NCBI GenBank assembly: GCA_037719805.1 | Contig: JBBJLZ010000003.1 | Strand: one strand, 5' to 3' | Source of the DNA: Pedobacter sp. | Lineage (GTDB): Bacteria > Bacteroidota > Bacteroidia > Sphingobacteriales > Sphingobacteriaceae | Length of the DNA: 64,000 nt | Shown: piece after piece, positions 9,404-28,128 of the stretch | Numbering within the stretch: the first letter of the stretch is position 1 | Layout: every line of letters begins with the position of its first letter | Notes under the pieces: generated by a model | The model's input: the letters and a program-made list of their open reading frames with translations, nothing else | What the model was told of the DNA's origin: nothing | The model's database searches: none | Program-made: the position numbers and the translations under genes

Positions 9404-9500
9404 TACCAGAAACCAAGGTATCAACTTGCTATTTTTTCTTTAACTGTGATCTAAAGCATCAATTACGGTAATGAGAAAACATTCTCTCATAAAACGAAGA
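9404..9500 (+). repeat. Dispersed box/palindrome/box element, copy 1
   Basis: Left arm TTTTTCTTTAACTGTG 9432-9448, right arm TACGGTAATGAGAAAA 9464-9479, box TCTCTCATAAAACGAAGA 9483-9500, degenerate upstream box ACCAGAAACCAAGGTA. Confidence 0.8.
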
Positions 9501-9618
9501 TATAACGTCAGTTAGCCACGAATGCTATTTATTTGAACCAATAAAATGGAGGTAATAGTTTTCAGGTGAAATTCTAGTTATATGATATTACGGGTATGTA
9601 TACGGAATTGCTATAATG

Positions 9619-9648
9619 AAAAAAGCATCAGTAATTAAACTGATGCTT
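9619..9648 (-). terminator. Rho-independent terminator of the GIN-domain gene
   Basis: AAGCATCAGT-aattaa-ACTGATGCTT stem; the A-run on plus gives a U-tail on minus. Confidence 0.7.
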
Positions 9649-9673
9649 CTTGAAATCACCCTTACTAATACTA

Positions 9674-10285
9674 CTATTTCGATAAACTACTAAGCGCAAT
9701 TTGGTCAGCCATCATGGCTTCAGAAACATATGATTCTGATCTTAAACTTGCAAAGTCACCCAACTTTACATTTTTTATGTTGCTTGCTACCATGGTACTT
9801 TTATCAGCAGTACCCTTTAGTTTCAGTACTGCATTATCTTTTACTACTGTATATAAACTTCCAACTGTTGTTTTGATTTTGGCAGTTGCGCTTTGATTCA
9901 AGAACAATTGAAGATTTTTAACATCAAAGTTATTGCTTGTCACTACTACGGATTGTCCGTATGCCTCTACCCTTTGCAAATCCTTAACAGTGATGTTAAG
10001 GGTTACCTGGGCCGATTCCGTTGAATTGATATAAAGCGTTTGCCCTTTGCTCAACACGGTTGTCTGGGTTGAATCATAATTGGTGGTCCCTATTACGCTT
10101 GGCTTGTCACCCTGAGTCAAAACGACCTTTACATTACCACTTATCCATATTTTATTAAAACCTTCGGCTGAAGGTGCTGCCAATTCTGTTGCAACTTGTT
10201 CTGTTGCAAAAGTTGTCATTGCTGATGAAGTTAATACTAAAGCTGTTAATGCTGCTGCGAATAATGTTTTTGTTAGCGTTTTCAT
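9674..10285 (-). CDS. Secreted GIN-domain (DUF2807, autotransporter adhesin head-like) protein
   Basis: Signal peptide; FNKIWISGNVKVVLTQG and repeated beta-solenoid-like pattern. Confidence 0.75.
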   Translation of the reverse strand: MKTLTKTLFAAALTALVLTSSAMTTFATEQVATELAAPSAEGFNKIWISGNVKVVLTQGDKPSVIGTTNYDSTQTTVLSKGQTLYINSTESAQVTLNITVKDLQRVEAYGQSVVVTSNNFDVKNLQLFLNQSATAKIKTTVGSLYTVVKDNAVLKLKGTADKSTMVASNIKNVKLGDFASLRSESYVSEAMMADQIALSSLSK

Positions 10286-10481
10286 GTCTTTCTATTTTTA
10301 AGATTTTATTTCGTTTTCTGTTATTAAGACGCCATCAGCACCGAAACGTTGCACGAAAAAACCTTGTAATATACCAGCATGAATAACCCCTAGACCAACG
10401 CCTGCTATTTCTCGACGAACATGGCGAATGTTCACTGACCATCTGCTTGCATTTTATGTTACTGTTGCATAACTAAGCAGC

Positions 10482-10566
10482 ATCACAAAACGAAGTAATC
10501 AATCTAGATCGCAATTTTTCTTTTAGCTGTAAATTCTAAACGGATTTACGACAACAAAAAGAGAAC
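10482..10566 (+). repeat. Box/palindrome element, copy 2
   Basis: ATCACAAAACGAAGT 10482-10496; TTTTTCTTTTAGCTGTA 10515-10531; degenerate right arm TACGACAACAAAAAGAGAAC 10547-10566. Confidence 0.75.
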
Positions 10567-10624
10567 AAGTATATTAGAAAACTTAACTTAAACTTTGGGA
10601 ATAAAGGCATACATAAGCTACACG

Positions 10625-10715
10625 ATTATAGTATTTCGACCGCCTTCGTTCATTTAGCTATAGATCTAAAGCATCAAGTACGGCAAAGAGAAAATAACTA
10701 TCTCAATAAGGAAGA
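10625..10715 (+). repeat. Palindrome/box element, copy 3, preceded by ATTATAGTATTTCGACCGC
   Basis: TTTAGCTATA 10653-10662; TACGGCAAAGAGAAAA 10679-10694; box 10699-10715; the 19-mer 10625-10643 is identical to 24075-24093. Confidence 0.85.
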
Positions 10716-10796
10716 TATAGAGGCTTAATTTAAGCTGATCTTAGATTTGGTAATTTATTACTCTCACATTTATATTTGAGTCTCGATATTTTATAA

Positions 10797-11135
10797 ATGA
10801 TAAAATTGTTTGTTGGAGGATTACCCCCTGAAGTTAAAGAACTAGATCTTGTGCAACTCATAGCTATCTACGGTGAAGTACAATCAATTAAAGTGATTAG
10901 AGATAAGCTTAAAGAACAATGTAAAGGCTATGCATTTTTAGAAATGAAAGACCACGAAGCGGCAAAAAATGTTATTATGTCTCTTAGCGGAGAATTGTTT
11001 AAGCGTAACACTCTTATTTTCAAAATAGTAGAGGAAAAACCTAAATTGGATAAAGTAGTTTTTAATAAAAATTCAAGCAAACCAAAAGATTTAAATCCGC
11101 CAAAAACAAAACGGCCTAGAAAAAGGGTTGTCTAA
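10797..11135 (+). CDS. RRM RNA-binding protein (paralog of 8934-9290)
   Basis: LFVGGL and KGYAFLEM motifs; basic C-terminal tail. Confidence 0.9.
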   Translation: MIKLFVGGLPPEVKELDLVQLIAIYGEVQSIKVIRDKLKEQCKGYAFLEMKDHEAAKNVIMSLSGELFKRNTLIFKIVEEKPKLDKVVFNKNSSKPKDLNPPKTKRPRKRVV

Positions 11136-11164
11136 GAAATATTACACTAAGCACTGAAAGTATT

Positions 11165-11181
11165 TGTCTTAAAAAAGGAAG
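11165..11181 (+). repeat. Isolated box of the element family
   Basis: TGTCTTAAAAAAGGAAG, the same 17-mer as at 19404. Confidence 0.65.
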
Positions 11182-11260
11182 ATTTTAACAGGTGGTATTA
11201 TGGAAAAGAATCTTAAAAGCCTAATTCTTATCTGTACCTGCTTAACTATCTTATGCAAAT

Positions 11261-11803
11261 ATGGAAAACATCGACAAACTTAAATATCCACTAGGAAAAT
11301 TTAAAAAACCAACACATATTGATAAAATCATTCTTCAGGAGTGGATTAGTATCATTGAAGACTTTCCGAAGAAGTTGAGAAGCGAAGTCCACAACTTGAC
11401 AGAAAATGAATTTGAGAAACAATACCGCCCAAATGGTTGGTCGGTCCGCCAAATTGTAAATCATTGCGCTGACAGTCATATGAACAGCTTAATAAGGTTT
11501 AAGCTTGCGTTAACGGAACAAATACCAGTCATTAAACCATATCTCGAAGATCTTTGGGCAGAATTATCCGACACAAAAATATTTCATGTCGAAAGTTCCT
11601 TAAAGATTTTGGAAGGATTACACGAAAGGTGGGTACACTTACTTAATAGCCTCTCAGATGAAGATCTCGAAAGACAATTCGAACATCCTGAAACCGGTGA
11701 ACTAGTTTCATTAAAAATTAACATTGGTATTTATGCTTGGCATTGTGAACACCATTTAGCTCACGTGAAAAATGCAAAATTAGATGTTGAAATAAACAAA
11801 TAG
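11261..11803 (+). CDS. YfiT/DinB family putative bacillithiol S-transferase-like metal-dependent protein
   Basis: KYPLGKF N-terminus, WSVRQIVNHCADSH and YAWHCEHHLAH motifs. Confidence 0.88.
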   Translation: MENIDKLKYPLGKFKKPTHIDKIILQEWISIIEDFPKKLRSEVHNLTENEFEKQYRPNGWSVRQIVNHCADSHMNSLIRFKLALTEQIPVIKPYLEDLWAELSDTKIFHVESSLKILEGLHERWVHLLNSLSDEDLERQFEHPETGELVSLKINIGIYAWHCEHHLAHVKNAKLDVEINK

Positions 11804-11850
11804 AACTTTGTGATCCATTTCAAAATTTAGATTAAAGAAAAAATTAAGAT

Positions 11851-11953
11851 CGTTAAAAAACGAAGTTATCCTTTCCCTGTCTTTCTTTTTAGCTGTAAAT
11901 TCTAAGCGTATTAAGTACCGCAAAGAGAAAATAAGTCTCTAAGAAAAGGAGGG
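11851..11953 (+). repeat. Box/palindrome/box element, copy 4
   Basis: AAAAAACGAAGT; TTTCTTTTTAGCTGTA 11882-11897; TACCGCAAAGAGAAAA 11916-11931; GTCTCTAAGAAAAGGAGGG 11935-11953. Confidence 0.85.
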
Positions 11954-12002
11954 AATAATGGTAAATCATATTAAGCCTAATCAGATAACCAGGATTATGA
12001 AT

Positions 12003-13364
12003 CTATTTACTGATATATTTATCAACTATAATATCTATCCATGCATTGTCTGGATAAGAACTCAGATCTACATCAGGCTTGATACCAGTATTATCTATGG
12101 GATTTGTATCTGTCCAATATGATTTCGTAGTAGGACGCATAAAAAAATAGTCCGGACATGGAAGTTTTTCCGGTTTGAACAATTCGCTATAATCCAGCGT
12201 ACCCGCTGTGTGCCTTCCATACACTCTTACTTTCATGCTATGTTTAGCAAGTTTCAAAAAATACTCTGAACTGCTTGCTGTGTTTTCATTTACAATTATG
12301 CTAATGGTTGCAGGATACTGATAGCTTTCTTTGAGGGCCATCTTAAGAGAGTCTCTTTGCACGAAATTTCCAATGTTTGCTACTAATTTAGGTAACATAG
12401 ATTGACGATATGGGCTCGTAGAGGTCTGATAATCTTTTATCAGATCTGCGGTCGAATATAAAAAATCGCCTGGTAATGAAAAGGGTTTTTCGTAGACAAG
12501 TCTCATTAGAGACAAAAATGAACTATTTCCGCCAACATTATTCCGTAGGTCTATAATCAAATTTTTAACTTTGTTCGCATTCACCTGAGGGATGACTTGA
12601 TTTACTATTATCGAGTCAAATTCTGTAGCATCCACCTTAAATGCTGGTATTCCTAAATAGTAAATATTGTCCGTTATCGGCTTATAAGTAAATTTCGAAT
12701 TATTAGGATATGATGAAGTTTTGATATGCAAATCATCTGTTTTATAAGCTGTTTTCTGCCAAATCCCATCTGGTTCAATTAGTAGGTTTCTTAACCTTCG
12801 TCCTCTTAGTAAGTCGGTAGTTAACCAGCTGTTGTATTTCCGAACCCTAAACTCATGTTCGTTTCCAATGAGTTCAAAATGAATATTTCCAATTCTGCCA
12901 GTGGGTTCTACAATATAACCTTTGTATGTAGATGAAGTACTTTCTTTCGATTCCTTTACAATCTTTACCCTCAGAGAGTCACTACTCCTTCGCCAAATAC
13001 CAATCAGTTGATCGGAGGTATCGTTAACCAAATTCTTTTTGTTTAGCACCTGTTTAGGTTGTGTCTTCCGATCAGTAAAAATAATATGGTTATCGTTAAA
13101 AAACCGAATATAGCCCTCAATTATATAAAAGCATTTTTCGCGATCTGCATTGGTAGATGCTTGTTCAATAGCTTTAGTTTTCAACTTCTTGTATTCTCTC
13201 TCATTGTATACCTTCAATTTTGCCTGGTAACCAGGATAATTATTTTCGATATCGAGTATAATTTCCTTTAAAACTATTGAGCAATGGCAATTATCTTTAT
13301 TTTGAGCTAAGGCATAATTAAAACATAAAACAAGTAGAAAAGAGATTGTAATTTTATATACCAT
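12003..13364 (-). CDS. Secreted S41 family peptidase
   Basis: IIDLRNNVGG, TASSSE and GRHTAG motifs. The signal peptide follows ATG 13364; the ORF-track extension to 13688 is probably spurious. Confidence 0.85.
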   Translation of the reverse strand: MVYKITISFLLVLCFNYALAQNKDNCHCSIVLKEIILDIENNYPGYQAKLKVYNEREYKKLKTKAIEQASTNADREKCFYIIEGYIRFFNDNHIIFTDRKTQPKQVLNKKNLVNDTSDQLIGIWRRSSDSLRVKIVKESKESTSSTYKGYIVEPTGRIGNIHFELIGNEHEFRVRKYNSWLTTDLLRGRRLRNLLIEPDGIWQKTAYKTDDLHIKTSSYPNNSKFTYKPITDNIYYLGIPAFKVDATEFDSIIVNQVIPQVNANKVKNLIIDLRNNVGGNSSFLSLMRLVYEKPFSLPGDFLYSTADLIKDYQTSTSPYRQSMLPKLVANIGNFVQRDSLKMALKESYQYPATISIIVNENTASSSEYFLKLAKHSMKVRVYGRHTAGTLDYSELFKPEKLPCPDYFFMRPTTKSYWTDTNPIDNTGIKPDVDLSSYPDNAWIDIIVDKYISK

Positions 13365-13572
13365 CTGACAATTTTTATAGAAGACGAAGTTTGAGATTAT
13401 AAAGTTGCATCTGAATTTTAGATTATCATTAAAGGGTGAAATAATGGAGGATACAAGGACCAGGCACAAGCTAGGAATTGTCTCAAAAGCGAAGATTTCT
13501 CTTTTTGCAGTAAAGCTGTACAGGCTAATTAATGATACCCTCTTAAAAATGGAGGGAATAATGAATTGTAGC

Positions 13573-14976
13573 CTATAGATTTCGGAATGCTTTAGCAGGA
13601 TTGATTTCGTTGACAACATTTGCTTCAAATTCCCTCCAGACAGATAAAGGAATTCCTGCTTCTTTAACAATATTTGTGAGAAAGGCATAATTAGAGTTCT
13701 GGTCTTTGTTTTTCAAGGCATTTTGTAAAACCCGGAATGTTTTCTCTTCACCTACTCTTTTTTCAAGAGCTAAAAGCACCAATGGTCCATAAGCATATCG
13801 ATACGCATCATCCATTTCGTCTTTATCAGTAAACTGAGATAAGGGAATGATCTTGTTTTCTGCAAGCAGCCCTTTTTTAAACTTTATAGAACTTCTAGTT
13901 GAATCTTTGCCATATTCATGTTCTGCTGCTTTCATGGAAAGATATTCTGCTGTCGATTCAATGAAAAAGTCTCTAAGCGTTGAATTAGGCACGAAGACAG
14001 CGCCAAAGTAATAATGGGCCAGTTCATGTGCGTAAAATGAGAACCTTACAAAATGATTCAACTTTCCTGTTTTTGGATCTATAGTTTTGCTAAATGGTAG
14101 ACCTGCCACTGCAATGGTTGGGAAAGTTACAAAGCCCCAGGATTGATTAGGTCCATAAGTCTGAATAGCTTTATGTTCTAAAAATATAATTTTTTCTTTA
14201 TACGGAACCTTTAATTTTTTTTCATAGAAAGTTTTTATCCCGGTTATTTGATGGTCGAACGCAGCAGCAATATCATCTTGCATTTTGGCATTCAGAAAAT
14301 CACTCCCGGGAAATTCCTGCTTACTATAATTCCCCATGAAAAGGAGCAAAGCCCTCGGTGTTGTGCTTTTAAAATTTGCAGAAGGACCAGGTTTGGCTGA
14401 AGTTCCGTTGATGTATATCGTCTTACAATCCTGACAGTCTACGCTAATATTATAGCTAAGTTTCTCTATTTCCCGGTCATGTTTGGTATCATATATTACT
14501 GGATACCACTTGCTCTCCTCGGTAGCTCTTAAGGTTTCACCATTAAATGCAATAATGGATTTATAGTCCACCAAGTTCATGGTGTCTGTATAAATTGGAA
14601 AAGCACCAGTATAGCTAACTCGGATTGTCCTAGGTGAAACAAGATAGCTTTGACTACGATATGGCCTATAATCCATTACATCTCCTAATGATTTGCTGTT
14701 GAATCTAACGAAACCGACACTGTCCTCCATAAATTTGATGTTCATGCCATGATGTAGACGTATTCTGAAAGCTGTATCAAGTGCTGGCAAGTTAGAAAGC
14801 TTTAAATTTGCCTGAATAGTGCCCGCTTTCATATTGATGGTCAGTTTTCCGGCAATAAGAGGAGACAGATCCTCGGAAAGAGATTTTTTAAAACCAAGGG
14901 ATGATGTTTTTTCCTGTGCTATGCTCGCTTGGATTGAAAGAATAAATAGAACTAGTAGTAGGTGCTTAAGAATCAT
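13573..14976 (-). CDS. Secreted M1-like (gluzincin) Zn metallopeptidase
   Basis: HELAH HEXXH motif with downstream ESTAEY glutamate; signal peptide. Confidence 0.85.
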   Translation of the reverse strand: MILKHLLLVLFILSIQASIAQEKTSSLGFKKSLSEDLSPLIAGKLTINMKAGTIQANLKLSNLPALDTAFRIRLHHGMNIKFMEDSVGFVRFNSKSLGDVMDYRPYRSQSYLVSPRTIRVSYTGAFPIYTDTMNLVDYKSIIAFNGETLRATEESKWYPVIYDTKHDREIEKLSYNISVDCQDCKTIYINGTSAKPGPSANFKSTTPRALLLFMGNYSKQEFPGSDFLNAKMQDDIAAAFDHQITGIKTFYEKKLKVPYKEKIIFLEHKAIQTYGPNQSWGFVTFPTIAVAGLPFSKTIDPKTGKLNHFVRFSFYAHELAHYYFGAVFVPNSTLRDFFIESTAEYLSMKAAEHEYGKDSTRSSIKFKKGLLAENKIIPLSQFTDKDEMDDAYRYAYGPLVLLALEKRVGEEKTFRVLQNALKNKDQNSNYAFLTNIVKEAGIPLSVWREFEANVVNEINPAKAFRNL

Positions 14977-15110
14977 GTCTACTTAATGTCTTTTGATATA
15001 GTGCCAAGTTAAAATAAAGGTTTGTATACGTTTGTTCTTTTTATAAATACCGTGGAATAATGGAGGATATAGTTTTGGCGCAAGCACGACTTGCCGCACA
15101 AACCGACATT

Positions 15111-15174
15111 ATTTGCCGTAAAGCTTCAATGAAAGTCAGTTCCGCCAAGCGTCTTTTTAAAGGAGGGAATAATG
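15111..15174 (+). repeat. Degenerate element copy
   Basis: TTTGCCGTAAA (exact reverse complement of the right-arm core), AGTTCCGCCAAG, then GTCTTTTTAAAGGAGGGAATAATG matching the 11935-11960 tail. A collapsed TTCTTTTAGTAAATTACGG follows at ~15212-15230. Confidence 0.6.
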
Positions 15175-15370
15175 ATAAAGTTCCAATTTACTTCGGTTGG
15201 GTGGCTGCAGATTCTTTTAGTAAATTACGGTAGATCAAATTTTGAAAAGCCAGGACAGTTTCATTCTTTTCAAATACTTAGGGACATATTATTATAATTC
15301 CTATTCAGGAAAGGTCATTTAGCACGTAACTAAAATTTTTATTATCTCGTCAAACCCGTAAATTTATTAC

Positions 15371-16672
15371 ATGAAGCATTTATATCTTTTAGTTTTCGCC
15401 CTTTTATTTCCGCTTTTGACTAAATCACAACACATCCAGACATCACTAATTTACACATCGGATATCGACCGTTTTTGGATAGCCTATGATAGTGTAAAGA
15501 CCACTATTGACACAGCCATTCAGAGAAATTATATGCAAAAGCTATATATAGATAAAGGATCTGAAGGACTACAAGCTTTTATGAAGGCGCGTGATTATGA
15601 CGCAGAACTTTGGGTTCACATTATAAATAAATATCCTAAGTTTTGGACTAGCATAAGAAAAAACACTTTGCAAGCTAAAAGGGATGCTAAGCGCATTGAA
15701 GTAAGCATTAATCAATTTAGAAAACTTTATCCAGAATTACGTCCTGCTAAGATGTATTTCACTATTGGAGGATTGCGGTCTGGTGGCACAACAACAAATG
15801 ATATGGTTTTGGTGGGAGCCGAAATTGCGACAGCCGACCAAACAACTGATGCTGCAGAATTAAGCGATTGGTTAAAAAATGTTTTTAAAAATCAGCAGGG
15901 AGCCAATTTAGTTAGCGTAAATGTTCACGAGTACGTTCATACTCAACAACAACCAAAAGGACAGACTTTACTTGCCCAGAGTATCAGAGAGGGTTCTGCA
16001 GACTTTATTAGCGAAGTAGTAACCGGAAAAATAGATAGCAGTGCTTATACTGTGTATGGAAGACAACATGAAGCCCGATTAAGGGAATTGTTCAAACTAG
16101 AAATGTTCAGTACTGAAACGTCTAATTGGTTGTATAATGGCTCTAATGCACCACATGCCGACTTAGGTTACTTTATGGGATATGCTATTTGCCAATCTTA
16201 CTACAAAAACCAGCCAGATAAGAGAAAGGCCATAAAAGATATTATTGAGCTGAACTACCAGAATTTGCAGCTTTTGAACGATTTTTTGACGGCTTCTAAA
16301 TATTATGACAAGCCTTTGAACCCAACCGAATTGCTTAAAGATTTTGAAGCCCTGAAACCCTCTGTTGTAAACCTCTCACCCGACATTAATTTAAAAACTG
16401 ACGTGGATACAACTTTAACTGAATTAACATTCAATTTTTCTCAAACGATGGGAGAAGGAAAATCTATCACTTTTGGTAAAGGAGGTAAAGATCACTTCCC
16501 ACTTACTAGTATTATTGGCTTCAGCGAGGATCGAAAATCTTTCAAAGTTAAGCTTGCCTTAGTGCCAGACAAAGATTATAATTTTGTAATTACTGGTAAA
16601 GGATTTAAGTCCAAAACTGGATACCCGCTTAAAGAATATACTGTTCAGTTCAACACGAAGAAGGCTAGATAA
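15371..16672 (+). CDS. Secreted DUF2268-like predicted Zn-dependent protease with C-terminal Ig-like domain
   Basis: HEYVH...REGSADF; LGYFMGY; Ig-like C-terminus; signal peptide. Confidence 0.75.
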   Translation: MKHLYLLVFALLFPLLTKSQHIQTSLIYTSDIDRFWIAYDSVKTTIDTAIQRNYMQKLYIDKGSEGLQAFMKARDYDAELWVHIINKYPKFWTSIRKNTLQAKRDAKRIEVSINQFRKLYPELRPAKMYFTIGGLRSGGTTTNDMVLVGAEIATADQTTDAAELSDWLKNVFKNQQGANLVSVNVHEYVHTQQQPKGQTLLAQSIREGSADFISEVVTGKIDSSAYTVYGRQHEARLRELFKLEMFSTETSNWLYNGSNAPHADLGYFMGYAICQSYYKNQPDKRKAIKDIIELNYQNLQLLNDFLTASKYYDKPLNPTELLKDFEALKPSVVNLSPDINLKTDVDTTLTELTFNFSQTMGEGKSITFGKGGKDHFPLTSIIGFSEDRKSFKVKLALVPDKDYNFVITGKGFKSKTGYPLKEYTVQFNTKKAR

Positions 16673-16712
16673 TTCTACATACAGCTTCCCTCATTCTTAT
16701 CAAAAAATGGTG

Positions 16713-18367
16713 GTGGCTGTTGCACAACTCCAATAAATGTAAAATTCTGCTTTTATAAAATTGCCAGAATGCGTAAATTAAAGGCATGCAAGGCAGAAGG
16801 ACTATACCGAAAAGCTGTTCACCAGCTTCCAGCTCTCGAGCCGGGTTCCCAAGGGAAACCTGTACCGCAAACTCCGCGAAACGCTTGATCTGAGCTTTTT
16901 ATATAAAGACACTAAAGAACTTTATGGCAAGACCGGAAACCCGTCAATTGACCCAGTGGTCTTTTTTAAGCTTCTGCTAACAGGCTATCTGGAGAACATT
17001 ACCTCTGACCGTAAACTTGTGGAGCATTGCTCCATGCGAATGGACGTGTTATATTTTCTTGGATTTGATATAGACGAAGACTTACCCTGGCATTCAACAA
17101 TTAGCAGGACAAGGCAGCTTTACCCGGCCTCACTGTTCGAAACATTATTCAACAAGGTATTTACCCTTTGTGTAAACAGTGGAATGGTTTCCGGTCATAC
17201 TCAGGCGGTAGATTCAGCGCCCGTTAAAGCAAACGCATCAATGGAAAGCGTGGAATTGAAAACACCAGTAATCTCTATTAATAACCACTTGAAAAAAGTA
17301 GAGGAAGAAAATCAGGAAGTTAAAAAGAATAATGATCCACCTAGCTCAGTGCAAATAACTGCGCCGGAGCACGAGTTAAGTCGGGTTAAAAAACGCCATC
17401 AAAACCTGCTTGATAATCCAGTTGGGGCACCCGGGGCATCACACGAAAAAGCACAGTTACTTAGCAACAAAACACATTACAATCCACATGATCCGGATGC
17501 CCGTATATCAGTAAAGCCTGGCAAAGCCAGAAAACTGAACTACCACTGCAGTATGGCAGTGGATACAGCAGAAGGTGTAATCTCGCATATTCAGGCAGAC
17601 TTCGCCGATGGCAGAGACAGCCAGTATCTCCCTAGCATTGGAATGCAGTTGCAAAACCGATTAAAGAAAAACGAACTATCAATGACGGACCTGATTGCAG
17701 ATGCAGGTTATTCTAACGGCTTCAATTACAAGTTTCTTGAACAAAGAAATGTTACCGGATGGATACCCGTATTTGGCATGTATAAACCTGAAATTGAAGG
17801 CTTTCCTTACAACAAGGAAAAGGATGAATACAGTTGTCCAATGAACAAGCCTTTACCATTCACGGGATTTCATACGAACAAGGATGGTACTGTATTGAAA
17901 AACTACTATGCAGCATCCAAGGATTGCAAAGTTTGCCCCATGAAATCTACCTGTGTACCAAATATACCATGCAGAAAGATCACCAGGACGGTTTATGACG
18001 AGCAGTATTTGAGGGCTTACAGCAGACAAAAAAGTGAACGAGGAAGACAGATGAAGAAACTCCGGCAAAGTACAGTGGAACCTGTCTTTGGAAGTTTGAC
18101 TCAGTACTATGGTTTAAGAAAAATAGGGGTACTTGGTAAAGCCGGTGCCCATAAAGTCATGCTGATGGCGGCAATTGCCTTCAATTTGAAGAAGTACCTG
18201 AAAAAAGGAAGAAGAAAGACTTCTAGCACCTTTCTAAAAGTCATTATAGACACCTTTCAGCGGTACTTATTAGCATTTTCAGTTAATCAGTATCAGTTGT
18301 CCTAAAGCCTGAATAAATGATCTGATAAATCGATGTTTAAGAAATGTAGCCATTGTGCAACAGCCAC
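16713..18367 (+). mobile_element. IS1182 family insertion sequence
   Basis: 15-bp terminal IR GTGGCTGTTGCACAA (16713-16727 / 18353-18367); 4-bp flanking duplication GGTG (16709-16712, 18368-18371). Confidence 0.88.
16786..18305 (+). pseudogene. IS1182 transposase with a frameshift at about codon 4-5
   Basis: The ATG 16786 frame (MQGRR...) stops early. The frame starting GAC at 16800 (DYTEKLFTSFQL...SIDPVVFFK) joins ORF 16956-18305, which has DDE-type motifs (AVDSAPVKANAS, ADAGY, RQSTVEPVFG). Confidence 0.8.
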
Positions 18368-20430: not shown

Positions 20431-20697
20431 TTAACGCTTTTTTTCTACAGCTTCTTTAAAAGTTTCATGTACCAGACTCAGATTTGCATACATTTTTTTA
20501 AGCCGGGCGTTTTCATCTTCCAGCTCCTTTATCCTTTTCAGTTCGTTAACTTCCAGACCACCATAACGCTGACGCCACTTGTAGAAGGATGCAGTGCTTA
20601 CACCTAAATCACGGCATAGCTCATTAACATTCCTACCATTTTCATGTTCCTTGATTGCTTTGACAATCTGAGTCTCCGTAAATCTTGACTTTTTCAT
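20431..20697 (-). CDS. IS3 transposase OrfA (HTH)
   Basis: [17 protein letters not shown]...[10 protein letters not shown]...[12 protein letters not shown]. Confidence 0.92.
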
Positions 20698-21337
20698 ATT
20701 ACACATTTAAAGTTAAAAATTCTTTTTATCGCCCGCGCTACGCTTGGTCGAGAATTCTACTTTTAAATGGTCAGCTTTTAGGGAAGCTTACACGATTATC
20801 GCTGATGTTGAGTATGATTTTATTTTCGTTACTTCTATCTGCTTGTGCATAAATGGAAGAAGTCGCAAGTGCATCTATTATAGTTTTGCCATTTTTTTCT
20901 AATTTGTAACCTCCTGATAATGTTTCAAATGAATATATCATCTGTGTAGTTGCTGTAAAACTGATTTTTAATTCTAGAATGAGCTGTGTTTCATTATTGC
21001 TATATACCCATGTTCCGGCAAATTTCCTAAATGCCTTCTCCGAGATTACTGTTCCAGCCTTTAAATTTTCATTACCAGTAAAAACCTTACTTTCTACAGT
21101 ATCCTTAAGCTGTGCTGATGCGCTTAGGCCAAATAGTATACCAATGGAAAACATTAAGATGAATTTTTTCATATACACATTATTAGTGAGCTTTGTCTAC
21201 TCATAAGAAGTAAAGAAAGAGGGACCGTGATCTGTGATCATAGTCCCTCCTATCTAAATTAACGCTCTCTCGCTTACTATAGCGTTTAAAGCTTGATTAT
21301 TGTTATACAACGAAAGTTTATTTTAGTATCAAAGGAA

Positions 21338-21435
21338 ATCTCATAAAACGAAGGAATCAATCCTATTCTTTTAGCTGTAAATTTTTATGGCATTAAGTAC
21401 GGCAAAGAGACAAGAGGTCTTTAAGAAAACGAGGG
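21338..21435 (+). repeat. Box/palindrome/box element, copy 6
   Basis: ATCTCATAAAACGAAGG 21338-21354; TTCTTTTAGCTGTA 21366-21379; TACGGCAAAGAGACAA 21398-21413; GTCTTTAAGAAAACGAGGG 21417-21435. Confidence 0.88.
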
Positions 21436-21639
21436 TTAACTATAATCTTCCTAATGCGACTAGTTCTTACAGCAATGACCTGGTAAACCATTTGATGAAC
21501 CGCCAAATATAGAACCGGATTTACACGTTTGACCTCTTATGATAACGACTTGGCGGAGCGTTTTCAAATTCTTATTTTTCCTACAAGTAAGCATTTAAAA
21601 ACCTTTTTGTATTTTTAAAGACTAAGCTCCGAATTTGAT

Positions 21640-23028
21640 ATGAAGAATATTCTATCTAAAGCCATATTGCTTGTACTATTCCTAGGAAGTAACTTAAATA
21701 TCTATGCGGATTGTAATATCACTGGAAACATGACTTCTTTTAAAGGCGCTAATTTCCATATTAACAACAACGAATCTGCACTAAATGAACACCATGGGGA
21801 GTTACTTGACCAAGGCATTATTGACAAGGATGGAAAATTTGTATCTGTGTTCAAAGTATCAAAATCAGGAGAGGCGATCCTGTATATTGGCAAGACTTTT
21901 TTCAGAATTTGGATTGATAATGGTGAATTAATAATTTCTGCCACAGACTCTGGATTGAGTTTTAGTGGGAGCCTTGCCGGTGAAAACAAGTTTATGTTTG
22001 ATTCAAAGTTTATGCAACCTTATTTGATTCCAAATGCGCTTGCATATAAACCAAACCAGATTAGTGCTTATATCTCTAAATGGAATGCCTTTCAGAATGA
22101 ACGTCTGGAACTAATAAAAGAAGGTAAACAAAATCGATTATCTGAAAGGTTTATTCAAAGAATGGAAGGTGAAATCCTTAATAGCACCATATATGCGAAA
22201 AACCAGTTTCCTTTACTACAATCAATGATCCCTGAAGCATTACCACCGGACTATTATAACTTTTGGAGCGATTTTCATATCCTTGAAGATGACCCAAGCC
22301 AAAAGGCATATATGAGTGCCCTATTGGACTATGCTGAATTTACGGTAAAGAAAAGTTACCCTTTGGAAACCTCAGATAGATCCCTGTTGATCAAAAAAGA
22401 GATATTTTTTCTGGATTCAGTGTTATCCGAGAGACCTCGGACACTGGAGGTGATAAAAGGAGAACTTACGCTGTTCTTGATAAAGTACTTTGACGACAAA
22501 ACCCTTCTGGAAGAACTTAGAAAAAACTTTAAATTGGATTACCCTAACTCTTCGTACACCAAACTAAGTGACACAAAGTGGTTTGAAAAAGAATTTAGGC
22601 AAAATAAAAAAGTCAGCTTCACGCTGAAAAACATATCAGGACAGGAAGTCAAGATTGAGGAATTTTTAGGGAAACTCGTTTATGTAGATTTTTGGGGAAG
22701 CTGGTGTAAAGCATGTCTTGAAGAAATGCCCTCTGCTGTTAAATTGAGAAAAAAGTTTGAAGGCACTGATATCGTGTTTCTTTATTTGGATTTTTATGAT
22801 TCAAAGAGCCAGTGGCTAAATGCGGTAAATGTCCACAGAATTGATGGCGTAAATCTTAAAGCAGAAGATACTGATTTACCATATTTTGATGCCTATTTTG
22901 GTGTTAGGCAGGGATTTCCACGGTATGCGCTTATAGACAAAAAAGGCATTCTTAAAACGACAAGCGCACCATCGCCAAGCGACACGAGCGTTATTGCATT
23001 TCTTGGAAAAGCCCTTAAAGACTTATGA
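21640..23028 (+). CDS. TlpA family protein disulfide reductase (secreted, C-terminal thioredoxin fold)
   Basis: GKLVYVDFWGSWCKAC; GFPRYALIDKKG. Confidence 0.88.
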   Translation: MKNILSKAILLVLFLGSNLNIYADCNITGNMTSFKGANFHINNNESALNEHHGELLDQGIIDKDGKFVSVFKVSKSGEAILYIGKTFFRIWIDNGELIISATDSGLSFSGSLAGENKFMFDSKFMQPYLIPNALAYKPNQISAYISKWNAFQNERLELIKEGKQNRLSERFIQRMEGEILNSTIYAKNQFPLLQSMIPEALPPDYYNFWSDFHILEDDPSQKAYMSALLDYAEFTVKKSYPLETSDRSLLIKKEIFFLDSVLSERPRTLEVIKGELTLFLIKYFDDKTLLEELRKNFKLDYPNSSYTKLSDTKWFEKEFRQNKKVSFTLKNISGQEVKIEEFLGKLVYVDFWGSWCKACLEEMPSAVKLRKKFEGTDIVFLYLDFYDSKSQWLNAVNVHRIDGVNLKAEDTDLPYFDAYFGVRQGFPRYALIDKKGILKTTSAPSPSDTSVIAFLGKALKDL

Positions 23029-23117
23029 GGGCAGGGTTGCACCTAAGTTTTGAGAGTATACATTATCAAAAAAAGGTCTTTTAAAAAGATAGGATTGGGA
23101 GGTTGAGGATAGGCATT

Positions 23118-23135
23118 TGTCTTAAAAAACGAAGG
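23118..23135 (+). repeat. Isolated box
   Basis: TGTCTTAAAAAACGAAGG. Confidence 0.7.
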
Positions 23136-23190
23136 GGTGTCGAAGTAAATGCATTCTCCATTCTTTCCGACAATTTTGTTATTTTTAAAT

Positions 23191-23601
23191 ATGAAAGTTT
23201 ACTCCACAAACTACTACGATACTTTTATTGAAGTTTCGCAAGACTCAAAAGCAAACTGTGGGACAAGGCCGCCCTCAAAAGCAAATCGAACAATTGCGGA
23301 ACGTCAATACGATTTAATTACTGGTCACCCTTATGCATTCACATCAGATGAGATATTTTTTAAAGTCTTTGTAGAAAGAAACGATTTGCTCGAGCAAGAG
23401 ATAAATCAAGCTAAAGAACTATTTTTCTCTAAAGGCCAACCATGTTTTCGGGCTTCTCCATTAGCCAAAACTTATGGCTTCAGGATCCATTGTAATGAGG
23501 AAGGAAAAGTATCTATTTATGGAGTAGAAACTGAAGAATACCGAAAATTAGTAGAAAACAAATCTATTAAAATGTTAAAGGCAACGAGATCAGGCAAGTA
23601 A
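23191..23601 (+). CDS. DUF6157-like conserved hypothetical protein
   Basis: TNYYDTFIEV N-terminus and FSKGQPCFRASPL motif, recalled from this family; ATG at 23191. Confidence 0.65.
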   Translation: MKVYSTNYYDTFIEVSQDSKANCGTRPPSKANRTIAERQYDLITGHPYAFTSDEIFFKVFVERNDLLEQEINQAKELFFSKGQPCFRASPLAKTYGFRIHCNEEGKVSIYGVETEEYRKLVENKSIKMLKATRSGK

Positions 23602-23612
23602 GAAGTGTACAT

Positions 23613-24170
23613 TGCCTCAAAAGACAAAAATGTGTTCTTTACTTTTTTAGCTATCTTAAATCACGGCAAAAATAGGTAGTTGTCTAATAAAACGAAGCTA
23701 TTCAATGTCAATTTTTCTATTAGCTGTAATTTAATAGATCCATAAGGGATATATTAATATCATTATATATTTATATCTTGATATTTATTATTTAGTCAAC
23801 CGCGATTAGGAAGGCAGGATTTTGTCTCAAGAAAGGAGGGTAACAACCTGTTTTTTAGCTGTTATTGTAACTTCGAATAAGTCGTTAATATATTTTATAT
23901 CTTTATATATTTAGATCACTAGTAATCTAAGCATCTTATCTCAAAAACGAAGGTATGGTCCCCCATCCAATATTATTTTTCTTTTAGCTGTATAATTTGA
24001 ACGCTTAGAACGGCAAAAAGTACATGGTCTCACAAAACGAAGCTTATAAATTATTAATTTAGTAAAGCTGTACTATTATAGTATTTCGACCGCTTTCCTT
24101 TTCTCTTTTAGCTGTTAAACCTACATATCAAGTACGGCAAAGAGAAAACAATTATTTCACTAAACGAAGG
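23613..24170 (+). repeat. Gene-free stack of about five element copies
   Basis: Boxes at 23613, 23681, 23823, 23937, 24026 and 24154; left arms at ~23643, 23711, 23851, 23976 and 24099; right arms at ~23663, 24009 and 24132. Confidence 0.85.
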
Positions 24171-24255
24171 TATACGTCCCCTACGCATAGTTACGATCTA
24201 AGATTTGAAAGCTGCAGTCGCTGTGAAGTAAAGTTACTTTCATTGTTTCCACAAG

Positions 24256-24288
24256 TACCAGATTCAAGAAGAATAATACCAGATTCAA
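24256..24288 (+). promoter_or_regulatory. Putative LytTR binding site (direct repeat, 21-bp period)
   Basis: TACCAGATTCAA at 24256-24267 and 24277-24288, upstream of the TlpA-HK-LytTR operon. Confidence 0.55.
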
Positions 24289-24343
24289 ATATTGATGATA
24301 AAGACGATTACCTGTTTTCCATATTTGTTACAAACAAACTCAT

Positions 24344-25498
24344 ATGAAAAACCTGACGGTCTGCCTATTGCTAATTTTAACTGCTAATTACTGCTTCGGA
24401 CAAGAAATCGACAAAAATGCGCTAGCCATTATGCAAAAGTCTTTTGATAAAATCGCCAACTTAAATATCGTTAAGTACAATTTAATATTCAAGGACACGA
24501 TGTTAAGGGCACCAAACCCGATGATAACCGAACAGACAACCATCAATGGATTAATAAAAAAGAATGCATACTGGTACTTATCATTCGAAGACAAAGCTCG
24601 ATGGCTAATCCAAGCGGATACATTGTTTAAGCGTGAAGTGAAAAGCCTCTCACTCAGCTATTCAACTAACTGGAGCGAGCATGAAATAGCCAAATACAGC
24701 ATATATAATCTTTTAGGCAACGATCGTTCAAGCTTTAGCTCTAAGAACGTGGCATCATTAAAATTTGTTCAAGATACTTCGTTGGCAGAATTTTATGTTA
24801 TTGATGAGGTTCGGATCAAAAGGGATTTCAAAACAGATGAGGTACAGGATGTGAAGTCTTATGACAGGCATTGGATTAATAAAAGTACGTTACTTCCGAT
24901 GCGTCGAACAAAATATAGTGAGACAATCCAAAATAAAAGACAGGCTATTGATATATATGACTTTGCTTTTAGAATAGAAGAATTGGCTAAAGCGCCTAAG
25001 GAAGTCACTAGCTTTTTTGATTCGATAACAGTAGTAACAAAAGAAAAAGAGGCAGATAGTCTTAAAATTAATTCTGCTGCTCCAATGTTTTCAGCTGTTA
25101 ACCTTGACAATAGTAAAATTGTAACGCTTAACAATCTTAAAGGAAAAGTATTATTATTAGATTTCTGGTATATGTCCTGCATGCCTTGTAGAATATTGAC
25201 TCCCAAAATTCAGAAATTACATGAAAAATTTGCCAAACAGAATGTTGCTGTAATTGGTGTGAATCTAATAGATACATCTTCTCAAGAGATAAAGGCTTTC
25301 TTAAAGAAAAAACAAATTACTTTTCCACAATACTACAAAGCAGCTAACCTTGCGAAAGACTATAAACTTTATGCGTACCCAACAATAATAATTGTAGGAA
25401 AGGATGGAAAGATTAAACTTGTGGAGTTAGGTTTTAACGATGATATAGAGACAAGATTAGAGCAACTTATTAATGTTGAATTGACAAAATCAATCTAA
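24344..25498 (+). CDS. TlpA family disulfide reductase with an additional N-terminal domain
   Basis: GKVLLLDFWYMSCMPC; YPTIIIVGKDG; signal peptide. Confidence 0.88.
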   Translation: MKNLTVCLLLILTANYCFGQEIDKNALAIMQKSFDKIANLNIVKYNLIFKDTMLRAPNPMITEQTTINGLIKKNAYWYLSFEDKARWLIQADTLFKREVKSLSLSYSTNWSEHEIAKYSIYNLLGNDRSSFSSKNVASLKFVQDTSLAEFYVIDEVRIKRDFKTDEVQDVKSYDRHWINKSTLLPMRRTKYSETIQNKRQAIDIYDFAFRIEELAKAPKEVTSFFDSITVVTKEKEADSLKINSAAPMFSAVNLDNSKIVTLNNLKGKVLLLDFWYMSCMPCRILTPKIQKLHEKFAKQNVAVIGVNLIDTSSQEIKAFLKKKQITFPQYYKAANLAKDYKLYAYPTIIIVGKDGKIKLVELGFNDDIETRLEQLINVELTKSI

Positions 25499-25522
25499 CA
25501 TCAGATTAATTTATCATTTTAA

Positions 25523-27340
25523 ATGCTATACAATATAAACCGCAAAAAATATTTAAATCCCTATATGGAAAACATAGTTCATGCATTAAAAAATATGTTT
25601 TTCTTGATAATCATAATTTGTTTGGTTGGTGACTTATCGAATGCTCAACCAAACGTATCAAACAAAAGACCGCTATCACTTCCATTTAATTCCGTCCTAG
25701 TCAAAAAAAATATCAATGGTAAAATTTGCGATAACTGTCCGGTAGATTTTGCCTTGAATGCTGAACTTGATTTTAGTTATATACTTACTGGCGTAGAACA
25801 TGCATCCGGCCGTTTATCTAAAAACCAATTTCCAACCCGGTATGGAACAGATAATAACTACACAAATATCCATGTAATATCAAATGCGAAAGTTGGCATA
25901 ACTTTTCTTCCAAACTATCTTATAAAAGATGGAAAATACTTTCAACTTCTAAGGAATTTTAAGGGCATACCCTATAAACAACTTGAATTTGAGATTAGAC
26001 AAAATAATAGTGTTATCAGAAACTGGGAACGAATTCGCACTCTAAAAGAAATACAGGATTATACCATCTTTGGAATTGGGAGTGACGATCCGTCTACTAT
26101 TGCGCCTTGGGAACAAACCTTCCATGCCGGAAGTTTTGAGCTAAAGGTTGATGATTTGTTAAGCATCACTGTCAGAACGATAGAGACAAAGGAAATCATT
26201 AGGAAAATAGCAATCTTTCGTCCCGTTGATAAAGCTTCAGATTTTATCTACTATCAAATTCCTTTAACAAATGATGATTTAGGTCACAGTCTTCAAAATA
26301 TTTTGAACCTTAATATTGACACATTCAAAGCTTTCAAGGGAGACTCTTCTACCACATTTATAAAAGAATACAATTCACTCGGGATTTTAAGATTTACGAA
26401 CCTCCAGGAAAATGAGGTATTAGAATATTCATTTGGGAATAACCCCTTGGAATGGAAGTCTATAAAAACAAGAGATCCAAGAACTGGTATATTCCTGGTG
26501 CTTCCAAGTACTATGAAGGATGGAAAAAGACAAAGAATATTTCTTCGTTACCAGAGCCAACCCGAAACAATCCACTCAATAGAAGTTCAAGTAAATAAGC
26601 GCCCATTTAAGTTTCCATGGTTTCAGCTATCATTCATTTCCATTATAATCTTAGCTATTATCGTAATAGGATTTAACATTAGGGAACGGAGGAATAAGAA
26701 GAAATTAGCGGCCCTCACTAAGAAAAATATTGAAACCGAAACTTACCTTGCATTACTTAGTGGCCAATTAAATCCTCATTTTCTATTTAATACGCTTAAT
26801 GCTATTCAGGGTACTATCGGAAGTAATAATCCAGATATCTCTAATGCTTATATTGGTAGCGTAGCTAAATTTATGCGTGATGTGATGGACAGCGGTAGGA
26901 AAGAATTTATTTCCTTAAAAGAAGAACTTAAAATGGAAGAAGATTACCTTCAACTTGAGCAGCAACGATTAGCTTTTCAATATACCATAACTATTAGTCC
27001 TGATCTTGACCCTGACCTAATTGACATCCCACCCTTGCTTTTACAGCCAATATTGGAAAACAGTATCCGTCATGGATTTGGTAGTAACCATCATGCTTCA
27101 ATGATAAAAATTACCGTCAATAGGTTAGATAATGCATTAGTTATTAGGGCGATAGACAACGGTGATTCAGTTTGGTATTCAAGTGAAGTATCGGAGGGTC
27201 ACGGTCTTTCGCTTACCAGGAAACGCCTTTCAATTTATAACGAAAAGCTTCAAAATATGTTAATTTTTCTGGATGTCTCTTATGTAGAAATGGAAATGGG
27301 CACAGTTGCTACCTTTACTCTAAACAATTGGTTACTATGA
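25523..27340 (+). CDS. LytS/YehU-type sensor histidine kinase
   Basis: QLNPHFLFNTLNAI, PPLLLQPILENSIRHG, DNGD and GHGL motifs; large periplasmic domain plus TM. Confidence 0.9.
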   Translation: MLYNINRKKYLNPYMENIVHALKNMFFLIIIICLVGDLSNAQPNVSNKRPLSLPFNSVLVKKNINGKICDNCPVDFALNAELDFSYILTGVEHASGRLSKNQFPTRYGTDNNYTNIHVISNAKVGITFLPNYLIKDGKYFQLLRNFKGIPYKQLEFEIRQNNSVIRNWERIRTLKEIQDYTIFGIGSDDPSTIAPWEQTFHAGSFELKVDDLLSITVRTIETKEIIRKIAIFRPVDKASDFIYYQIPLTNDDLGHSLQNILNLNIDTFKAFKGDSSTTFIKEYNSLGILRFTNLQENEVLEYSFGNNPLEWKSIKTRDPRTGIFLVLPSTMKDGKRQRIFLRYQSQPETIHSIEVQVNKRPFKFPWFQLSFISIIILAIIVIGFNIRERRNKKKLAALTKKNIETETYLALLSGQLNPHFLFNTLNAIQGTIGSNNPDISNAYIGSVAKFMRDVMDSGRKEFISLKEELKMEEDYLQLEQQRLAFQYTITISPDLDPDLIDIPPLLLQPILENSIRHGFGSNHHASMIKITVNRLDNALVIRAIDNGDSVWYSSEVSEGHGLSLTRKRLSIYNEKLQNMLIFLDVSYVEMEMGTVATFTLNNWLL

Positions 27341-28083
27341 AAAATCTCACTTGCTTTATTGTGGACGATGAACAAGTCGCAGTTGAAGCTTTGTCTACAA
27401 TAATCCGAAGATATTGCCCGGACCTTACAATTTCTGGCACTGCAAATTCGGTCAAGGATGGATTGGAATTACTAAATAGCCAGATAGTTGATATTTTATT
27501 TCTGGATATTAAGATGAAACAAGAAACAGGTTTTGATCTTTTGAAGCAACTCCAAATAGATAACTTTCACATCATTTTCGTAACTGCGCATGATCAGTAT
27601 GGTATACAAGCCATAAAGTTTTCCGCTACAGACTATCTACTAAAGCCAATAATTCCGGAGGAACTAATTGCAGCTGTATATAAAATAAACCATAAAAGAA
27701 AGACGTCCGTTGGTGAGATTGATATGCTTTTACAATCTTACGATCATCAAAGAAATAATTTACAAAAACGAATTGCCTTAGCTGACCAGAATGAGATCCG
27801 CTATGTACTTATCGAAAACATTGTATGTTGTAATGCAGATAATAGCTACACCAGCTTCTATATTTCTAATGAAACTGCGCCAATTATAGTATCCAAATCA
27901 ATTTCTGACTATGAACAGATCCTATCCATTTATGGATTTCTACGAACTCATCAATCATGGCTGATCAATAAGAATCGGATAGAGTCATTTAAAAAAGCAG
28001 ACGGAGGATATCTCGTTATGGATAATAAGATGAGTGTGCCAGTGAGCCGCCAAAGAAGACATTTGTTAAATAATAATGCATAA
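27337..28083 (+). CDS. LytR/AlgR family response regulator (REC + LytTR)
   Basis: VDDE, FLDIKM, YLLKP and FLRTHQSWLIN motifs; ATGA overlap with the kinase stop. Confidence 0.92.
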   Translation: MKNLTCFIVDDEQVAVEALSTIIRRYCPDLTISGTANSVKDGLELLNSQIVDILFLDIKMKQETGFDLLKQLQIDNFHIIFVTAHDQYGIQAIKFSATDYLLKPIIPEELIAAVYKINHKRKTSVGEIDMLLQSYDHQRNNLQKRIALADQNEIRYVLIENIVCCNADNSYTSFYISNETAPIIVSKSISDYEQILSIYGFLRTHQSWLINKNRIESFKKADGGYLVMDNKMSVPVSRQRRHLLNNNA

Positions 28084-28090
28084 AAATTGG

Positions 28091-28128
28091 CGCAGCAAAA
28101 AGGAAATAAATGTCTCAGAAAACGAAGG
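28091..28128 (+). repeat. Right half of the element (degenerate right arm plus box); last copy seen
   Basis: CGCAGCAAAAAGGAAA-taaa-TGTCTCAGAAAACGAAGG. Confidence 0.7.

Follow-up and report, generated by a model that had tools for sequence, protein, structure and literature searches.

The 64,000-nucleotide stretch of Pedobacter sp. contig JBBJLZ010000003.1 analysed here (the window, always meant at its full length) carries between positions 9,404 and 28,128 an island of small, unrelated gene modules. Its intergenic gaps hold copies of one short asymmetric repeat, which we call the box, and many boxes are accompanied by an imperfect palindrome with which they form a larger unit. The island lies in DNA of low G+C content (0.36 over positions 1-32000, the boxes being confined to 9.4-28.1 kb of that), and the glycolysis and cell-division core beyond 32 kb has a G+C content of 0.44. 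Every site lies on the + strand. An initial annotation, made from the letters of the window alone, had noticed that the genes between the sites run in both orientations, and this is borne out: 7 of about 15 are on the - strand, and the modules are mostly single open reading frames (ORFs). As set out below, the boxes are the places at which blocks shared with other genomes begin and end, and we think that they are the sites at which the array was assembled.

The box has the consensus TGTCTCAAAAAACGAAGG and is 17-18 bp long. With up to three mismatches allowed, it matches the window 10 times, always on the + strand, against 0.07 matches expected in shuffled sequences; the left arm of the palindrome gives 11 matches against 2.1 expected, and the right arm 12 against 1.1. 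A repeat finder, a motif scan and a profile built from the copies concur that all true copies are on the + strand within 9404-28131. An independent weight matrix, trained only on boxes of other genomes, found 12 matches on the + strand (all at 9481-28130) and one on the - strand, compared with 0.65 per strand in shuffles. No true box or unit occurs in the remaining 45 kb of the window, the 36-kb core region included; the sole box-like match outside the array (4424, - strand, 15 bits) lies inside a metallophosphoesterase gene and is probably due to chance. Reading the intergenic DNA by eye raised the count to about 24 boxes, with shorter, longer and degenerate ones included, and to about 12 copies of the 48-bp palindrome, half-palindromes included. 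When gaps within operons or made by insertion sequences (IS) are set aside, about 12 of the 13 gaps of the island contain at least one box. The same-strand repeat family of the initial annotation, and its absence from the core region, are thus upheld by the motif, profile and weight-matrix scans. The unit had been described as a box, 10-25 nt, TTTTCTTTTAGCTGTA, 15-18 nt, TACGGCAAAGAGAAAA, 4-6 nt and a second box; this order is found at 11849, 18411, 21337 and 23936, and the 4-6 nt between palindrome and following box are constant, but the spacer range fails for the unit ending at 24170, which has a 55-nt spacer. The features of the array are as follows.

9404-9500, +: unit U1, the left end of the array, with a degenerate box (9404-9418), arms (9433-9449 and 9464-9479) and a box (9483-9500); nhmmer E 3e-14
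9674-10285, -: module, DUF2807/GIN-domain protein (Pfam)
10480-10587, +: box (10480-10496), palindrome (10516-10565; right arm of the long-form type described below) and degenerate box (10570-10587); E 5e-13
10588-10715, +: long-spacer unit with the iteron 16-mer TTATAGTATTTCGACC (10626-10641), arms (10648-10662 and 10679-10694) and a box (10698-10715)
10797-11135, +: module, RRM RNA-binding protein (Pfam)
11165-11182, +: solo box in the gap between the RRM and DinB_2 genes; 28 bits by weight matrix
11261-11803, +: module, DinB_2 protein (Pfam)
11849-11953, +: full unit with box (11849-11866), arms (11882-11897 and 11916-11931) and a second box (11935-11953) that continues as ...GGAGGGAATAATG; E 1e-17
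12003-13400, -: module, S41 peptidase (Pfam)
13478-13556, +: unit overlooked earlier, with box (13478-13495), left arm (13497-13512) and box variant CTCTTAAAAATGGAGGG (13540-13556)
13573-14976, -: module, M1-family peptidase (Pfam)
15053-15167, +: degenerate unit of the same subtype as 13440-13556, with box 15151-15167 (GTCTTTTTAAAGGAGGG)
15371-16672, +: module, DUF2268/GldB-like lipoprotein (Pfam)
16713-18352, +: IS1182/IS5-type insertion sequence (Pfam DDE_Tnp_1_6 and DUF772)
18411-18511, +: full unit with a perfect consensus box (18411-18428), arms (18442-18457 and 18474-18489) and a box (18494-18511); E 8e-17
18515-19360, -: module, Abi_C abortive-infection-type protein (Pfam)
19404-19421, +: solo box (motif scan, weight matrix)
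19579-20792, -: IS3-family insertion sequence, orfA 20431-20706 and orfB 19619-20407 (Pfam)
20771-21178, -: module, DUF6705 protein (Pfam)
21337-21435, +: full unit with box (21337-21354), arms (21364-21379 and 21398-21413) and box (21417-21435); E 4e-18
21426-23078, +: module, TlpA-like thiol-disulfide oxidoreductase (gene 21640-23028)
23118-23135, +: box, left edge of the DUF6157 module, at which homology to loci L253 and L228 begins
23136-23698, +: DUF6157 module, with gene 23191-23601 (136 aa), short palindrome 23643-23672 and box 23681-23698
23699-24170, +: four gene-less segments with terminal boxes at 23823-23840, 23936-23953, 24026-24043 and 24152-24170
24021-28128, +: block of TlpA, histidine kinase and LytTR response regulator genes (24344-25498, 25523-27340, 27328-28083)

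Several entries differ from the initial annotation. The copies do bracket unrelated modules, as it had said, but the S41 and M1 peptidase genes, which it had counted as one module, are two, because the previously missed unit at 13478-13556 separates them. The mechanical ORF for the S41 peptidase (12003-13688) is too long, since it crosses that unit and overlaps the M1 gene; the true start probably lies before about 13400. Homology of a contig from the related metagenome X2 to the M1 gene begins at 13552. The protein earlier labelled YfiT is a DinB_2 protein, the one labelled a secreted protein is DUF6705, and the list of island genes had omitted both insertion sequences, which we found by Pfam. 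The IS1182/IS5-type element is a later insertion and does not belong to the array; an X2 contig covers 16713-18333, and a joint connects 16729 to 18353. The IS3-family element has a read depth of 83.6 in the source sample against about 20 for its neighbours, which indicates about four copies. The TlpA-like module has as its left edge the 3' part of box 21417-21435 and as its right edge the box-like TTATCAAAAAAAGGTC at 23063-23078. For DUF6157, too, the mechanical ORF (23149-23601) is too long, as relatives show a protein of 136 aa that starts at 23191. Of the four gene-less segments, two combine a left arm with an AT-rich stretch that belongs to the long form; the others are a short unit and a long-spacer unit in which the iteron 16-mer occupies 24076-24091. 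At the right end of the array a right-arm remnant (28091-28106) precedes the box at 28111-28128.

The initial annotation had proposed that strains be compared for breakpoints of the modules, and this comparison, across strains and species, places the breakpoints at the boxes. (Loci from other genomes and metagenomes carry L numbers.) Positions 24021-28128 of the window correspond to 9678-13788 of L269 with 96.5% identity over 4.1 kb, and the block is also found in L273. The block shared with L269 extends from box 24026-24043 through the final base of box 28111-28128; the sequences on either side of it are unrelated, the box being all that the junctions have in common, and the L269 context is constant across several samples. 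Within this 96.5% block the right-hand boxes are identical (17/17) and the left-hand boxes differ at 3/17 positions, which fits each cassette bringing its own terminal box. The TlpA-like module (21426-23072, 1.65 kb) is 97% identical to a phyllosphere metagenome-assembled genome (MAG; L218/L219), where its context is unrelated; contigs of X2, which comes from the same sample as L218/L219, are mostly below 90%, at about 85%, when compared with the core genes of the window. Both ends of the L218 block fall within box-like motifs, and the halves of the box segregate.

Four loci, namely the window, L220, L228 and L253, have the DUF6157 module, each in a different context; homology begins at the box in three of them, and homology between the window and L220 stops at the next box. 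A further block (L220 4495-5012, L228 3304-3821) matches from a box onward, and three loci that are 99.3-99.5% identical (L220, L223 and L222) diverge into unrelated sequence precisely at one box, at its 5' edge or just 3' of it. No mapped breakpoint lies inside a palindrome. The initial annotation had taken the palindrome for the core of an att-like site and the boxes for accessory arm sites; since the mapped breakpoints are all at boxes and many junctions are solo boxes, these roles are not supported, and we conclude that the palindrome is dispensable and that the box serves as the junction. In one metagenome variant the short palindrome that follows DUF6157 is interrupted by an IS21-type element (L253 2573-4969; Mu-transposase-like and IstB).

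The family is present in at least eight further Pedobacter-type genomes or metagenomes, recovered by pattern scans and by look-ups of homologues of the island proteins. They comprise Pedobacter sp. UBA1654 (L066, L235 and L242, three non-overlapping loci of one 135-kb contig), P. antarcticus ATCC 51969, Pedobacter sp. SAFR-022, Pedobacter sp. UBA2067, two Bacteroidota MAGs and several soil metagenomes, so that the scan of other Sphingobacteriaceae that the initial annotation had suggested gave a positive answer. Within every contig all copies are on one strand (L220, L066/L235/L242, L236, L237 and L269 included), and in several genomes there is about one box per intergenic gap irrespective of the strand of the genes. 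L228 has 17 boxes, all on the + strand and in nearly every gap of 17 kb, and its genes run both ways. Neighbouring genes in these relatives encode TIR, AAA_21, RES, putative AbiC, GIN and TlpA proteins, sensor kinases and an MmeI-type restriction-modification enzyme; the cargo is of accessory or defence type. The 2.7 Mb of DNA that we fetched contained three stray near-matches outside box loci, and neither a uniform scatter through core intergenic DNA nor a match to the ends of a known IS or MITE (a miniature transposable element with inverted repeats) was seen.

Other scans delimit this distribution. A strict exact-pattern scan of genomes gave no match, and looser scans gave mostly chance matches with a few true Pedobacter loci; viral contigs had chance matches in coding DNA only, and a pattern scan of metagenomes yielded two short true contigs. 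Counting copies by aligning contigs to a single unit was too insensitive. In named Pedobacter species the loci around the Na/Pi transporter gene showed neither synteny nor repeats; the transporter of the window shares 87-88% identity with its P. lithocola and P. psychrotolerans counterparts. One soil-metagenome run contains 100% of the island's words.

Integron attC sites are imperfect palindromes bounded by RYYYAAC ... GTTRRRY in which structure rather than sequence is conserved, and the initial annotation had likened the palindrome to an attC hairpin with extrahelical bases. Across 28 palindrome copies, its bulged A is actually a conserved A.A mismatch at one constant position, and the T:G pair that it had called conserved is present in about half the copies, the rest having T:A. 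The right arm varies alone, without a single compensatory double change, and for this reason the attC-like hairpin analogy is unsupported. The palindrome is AT-rich and folds weakly on either strand (z -0.5 to -2.6 on +); RNAalifold returned no consensus structure from the aligned copies, single-sequence folds of the units and of the long form on both strands were not significant against shuffles, and neither at gathering thresholds nor with E-values up to 1-5 did any Rfam 15 family match the window units or the long form. The absence of attC boxes, in turn, was correctly noted: the two inverse core pairs of the island (shuffles have a mean of four) are located in coding DNA at 25377, and none lies at a unit. 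Conservation therefore acts on sequence and not on fold, and on this ground we class the element as neither attC, repetitive extragenic palindrome (REP), MITE nor known RNA. The 64-kb window has no tRNA gene, and none serves as an anchor for the array.

In relatives the unit also occurs in a long form of about 260 nt. Its 5' part consists of a box, a conserved stretch of about 75 nt ending in ATTATAGTAT(A/T)(C/T)CGACC, the left arm and a 30-nt loop; its 3' part begins with a right arm of ACAACAAAAAGAAAAG type and continues through a palindrome that is perfect and AT-rich (CTGATATATAGATAT ... ATATCTATATATCAG) and a tail to the closing box. Similarity among long-form copies is 85-87% whether they come from one genome or from different species, which suggests constraint. 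The window contains only short forms and fragments of the long form (10588-10715 and 23699-24170). In one long-form copy (L228 3240-3265) a (TA)n microsatellite expansion replaces the loop of the AT-rich palindrome.

The 16-mer TTATAGTATTTCGACC of some units recurs without change as the iteron that forms clusters on conjugative plasmids or elements of one family in Sphingobacteriaceae (Pedobacter and Mucilaginibacter). On plasmids such as pA27BH1 and two from Mucilaginibacter it occurs in 5-8 copies with 21-nt phasing; the sites are 10626-10641 and 24076-24091 in the window, L243 2507-2752, L245 32-224 and NZ_MN657144.1 at about 62650-62933. The plasmid iterons adjoin a gene for a protein of 407-430 aa, without a family in either Pfam or NCBIfam and possibly a new replication initiator; no homologue of it lies near the arrays. 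A plasmid location of the units themselves was tried and rejected: PLSDB contains no match to them, and pA27BH1, like the other iteron plasmids, has iterons and neither boxes nor units.

Three further observations concern the arrays and their surroundings. Three boxes run on as AAGGAGGGAATAATG (11944-11960, 13547-13563 and 15158-15174), a strong Shine-Dalgarno-like motif plus ATG that is unusual for Bacteroidota and opens only tiny or overlapping ORFs, such as 11958-12122. The same arrays contain, in the orientation of the boxes, another conserved non-coding element, in which a perfect hairpin of 11 bp (GGGACCNTGATC...GATCANNGTCCC) precedes TATCTAAATTAACGCTCTC...TAGCGTT (window 21208-21309; L066 3458-3556; L220 9935-10029; L228 8438-8532 and about 12560-12630); it is possibly a terminator or another non-coding cassette. 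To the right of the array, positions 29001-31700 encode a 307-aa protein without a Pfam match, a DUF6266 protein and a CHAP-domain protein; this stretch is free of boxes and yet missing from the related metagenomes X2 and X4, so the variable region is wider than the array.

Taken together, the single orientation, the presence of about one box per gap and the box-bounded blocks in unrelated contexts are most simply accounted for by recombination at the box. We favour, with confidence a little above even, the view that the island is a non-integron cassette array built by conservative site-specific recombination at the box by an enzyme encoded in trans. The initial annotation had proposed cassette accretion or an att-site hotspot; this is supported in part, by the co-oriented sites that are restricted to the island and delimit unrelated modules, but the junction is the box rather than the palindrome. 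In such a system the asymmetric 17-18-bp box in one orientation would form the junction, with modules of one to three unrelated genes between consecutive boxes. A circular module with one box would recombine with a resident box, leaving the module between two co-oriented boxes, and repetition would yield one box per gap; recombination between two boxes would excise the intervening DNA and so lose a module. The crossover would lie within the box or at its 3' edge, because the halves of the box segregate in the L218 pair and because in the L269 pair the left box is foreign and the right one belongs to the block. The palindrome, the iteron 16-mer and the AT-rich palindrome are probably accessory protein-binding sites, which together would make a complex att- or res-like site, or else a non-coding cassette, and the recombinase would be encoded elsewhere. 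RecA-type exchange is a poorer fit, as several junctions share only about 17 nt. We are more tentative, and on balance doubtful, about a fuller version of this view, an integron-independent capture system of the Sphingobacteriaceae with a dedicated recombinase, a 17-bp box assisted by the 48-bp palindrome and an iteron-like site, one-gene cassettes of accessory and defence function in either orientation and possibly delivery by plasmids.

Several results count against recombination at the box. No recombinase was found in the 64-kb window or in about 100 kb of related loci. Among the ORFs scanned (island, flanks and most of the core) there are no tyrosine or serine recombinases, the only recombination enzymes being the two IS transposases; the idea that the enzyme is encoded elsewhere, put forward in the initial annotation, agrees with the lack of one nearby. 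The sole recombinase that adjoins units, the resolvase of P. antarcticus locus L237, is part of a primase-resolvase plasmid backbone. The box lacks the dyad symmetry that typical core sites of tyrosine and serine recombinases have, and some modules have edges that are blurred or fall at degenerate boxes (23063-23078, and L220 upstream of DUF6157). No excised circle or empty site was seen among assembled contigs, the only type of data used, and the evidence that boxes are confined to islands comes from about 60 kb of sequence outside them together with the negative neighbouring loci. Finally, the junctions may be old alleles moved by ordinary homologous recombination in flanking DNA, in which case the breakpoints at boxes show where joining once happened and not how.

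The L237 resolvase (a serine resolvase of 184 aa) was considered as the enzyme and rejected as unlinked, linkage to a specific integrase or resolvase being one of the tests that the initial annotation had suggested: five relatives lie in primase-resolvase backbones of plasmids or integrative and conjugative elements (ICE) that have neither box nor unit. Homology among these backbones stops exactly at the resolvase stop codon, and differing cargo follows. Just downstream of the resolvase genes of L237 (6913-8000), L243, L245, L246 and L251 are TGATAGTA/TGATAGCA repeats that may be a res site. The box resembles the half-sites of Hin, Gin and Cin (TTATCAAAAACC), which we take as a lead only, the second inverted half-site being missing from the box.

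Among other explanations we give most weight, as an unlikely but serious one, to mosaic intergenic repeats that act as homology anchors, with RecA-dependent swapping between 80-260-bp units after transformation or conjugation and no dedicated enzyme. It would account for the tandem gene-less arrays of shuffled sub-modules (23600-24170; L102 1-290; L228 2850-3320), for the lack of a linked recombinase and for the junctions that share a whole unit, such as the left side of the L220/L228 pair. At the best-resolved junctions, however, only a 17-nt or degenerate box is shared: at the ends of the L269 block, between L220 and L223, between the window and L253 and at the right end of the L218 block, and 17 nt of homology is too short for efficient RecA exchange. 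Nor do anchors require the strict co-orientation of about 100 copies in about 10 contigs; inverted ones should sometimes survive. We regard it as improbable, more so than anchors, that the units are small non-autonomous mobile elements (REP, MITE or palindrome-associated), moved by a transposase encoded elsewhere and possibly as single-stranded DNA, whose location in gaps reflects tolerance. The mixture of short (about 80-100 nt), long (about 260 nt), solo and tandem copies does resemble decaying families of small elements, the constant 4-6 nt before the following box is in keeping with it, and a uniform strand could mirror the direction of replication. Near-identical strains, however, differ by replacement of flanking genes at a box and not by presence or absence of a unit; copies are as diverged within a genome (87%) as between species, so there was no recent burst; the palindrome is rich in A+T and folds weakly; there are no terminal inverted repeats accompanied by target duplications; and the copies are clustered rather than dispersed, with none in the core of the window or the loci of related Pedobacter species. 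A Y1/RAYT-type gene (RAYT, REP-associated tyrosine transposase) was not seen in the window.

That the sites have a chromosomal role unrelated to recombination, as binding sites that mark or silence foreign DNA, insulate transcription or titrate an iteron-binding protein, seems to us quite improbable. The identity of the unit 16-mer with clustered plasmid iterons, the conservation of sequence rather than structure and the location of the arrays in low-G+C accessory DNA would all suit such a role, which nonetheless leaves unexplained the homology blocks that end at boxes across genomes, the presence of about one box per gap and the strict single orientation; moreover, only a minority of units has the iteron. 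The reading of the unit as a structured non-coding RNA or cis-regulatory RNA leader is the least probable of all and is largely refuted by the lack of an Rfam match, of a consensus fold, of energies better than shuffles and of compensatory change, and by an orientation independent of neighbouring genes, even though the T:G positions would be U:G wobbles on the + strand only and some boxes end in AAGGAGGGAATAATG, which resembles a ribosome-binding site plus start codon.

If recombination at the box is confirmed, the consequences would reach beyond this genome. To our knowledge, integrons are the only well-established builder of single-gene cassette arrays, and they are rare in Bacteroidota. A second cassette system, using another kind of site and leaving gene orientation free, would imply more than one evolutionary origin of cassette capture, would account for the assembly of hypervariable accessory and defence regions by soil Bacteroidota, and would make the box a simple sequence tag for mobile genes and their recombinase in metagenomes. 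The proposal can be tested directly in isolates, of which at least two have members of the family: the culture-collection strain P. antarcticus ATCC 51969 and Pedobacter sp. SAFR-022.

Gene-cassette arrays delimited by sites are a known kind; this box family is undescribed in Rfam and in the literature that we searched, where we found no account of the box and palindrome. Repeat families that it recalls in outline differ in particulars. REP, BIME (bacterial interspersed mosaic element) and REPIN sequences are stable G+C-rich hairpins in high copy number, dispersed through the whole genome, alternating in orientation and linked to RAYT genes, whereas the units here are AT-rich, weakly folding, clustered and on one strand. 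MITEs have terminal inverted repeats and, beside them, a short target-site duplication that varies between copies; in the present units the inverted arms are internal and 15-30 nt apart, and each copy is flanked by direct repeats of one and the same box. CRISPR arrays consist of regular short repeats with spacers of similar length; here neighbouring repeats are 60 nt to 4 kb apart, and genes lie between them. The dRS3-flanked intergenic mosaic elements of Neisseria and the pneumococcal BOX elements are likewise modular repeats with tandem gene-less arrays near variable genes and a short flanking repeat, but they are found genome-wide in both orientations, dRS3 is an inverted repeat, and neither shares sequence similarity with the present family, which is co-oriented, clustered and located at breakpoints of gene blocks. 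The intergenic mosaic elements and the minimal mobile elements of Neisseria offer an analogy for cassette-like swapping without a dedicated enzyme. The pdif (Xer-site) modules of Acinetobacter plasmids are similar in that short sites bound modules in varied contexts and the recombinase is elsewhere; pdif sites, however, are 28-bp XerC/XerD dyads of alternating orientation, and the box has no dyad and is never inverted.

Two systems come closest. In the accretion of ICEs and cis-mobilizable elements (CIME), as for ICESt1 and ICESt3 of Streptococcus thermophilus, direct repeats of one short att core flank modules, and here too boxes stand at both module ends and shared blocks end at boxes, as att-flanked accretion implies. 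The modules have no recombination genes of their own and would be moved in trans, and a link to conjugative plasmids exists through the iteron 16-mer and the L237 units beside a plasmid-type backbone. Compared with such elements, the modules of this array are much smaller (0.1-4 kb, most with a single gene) and much more numerous; there is no anchor in a tRNA or the 3' end of a conserved gene, and no cognate integrase or ICE was found. Compared with integrons and with CALINs, which are clusters of attC sites without an integrase, the arrays lack attC architecture, have as junction a 17-bp asymmetric box instead of a hairpin, carry genes on both strands and tandem gene-less units, and no IntI, the tyrosine recombinase that in integrons adjoins the array together with attI, was found among the scanned ORFs. 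They share with integrons and CALINs the mostly single-gene modules of unrelated accessory and defence functions, the one co-oriented site per junction, the recurrence of the same cassette in different arrays and the existence of arrays with no integrase nearby.

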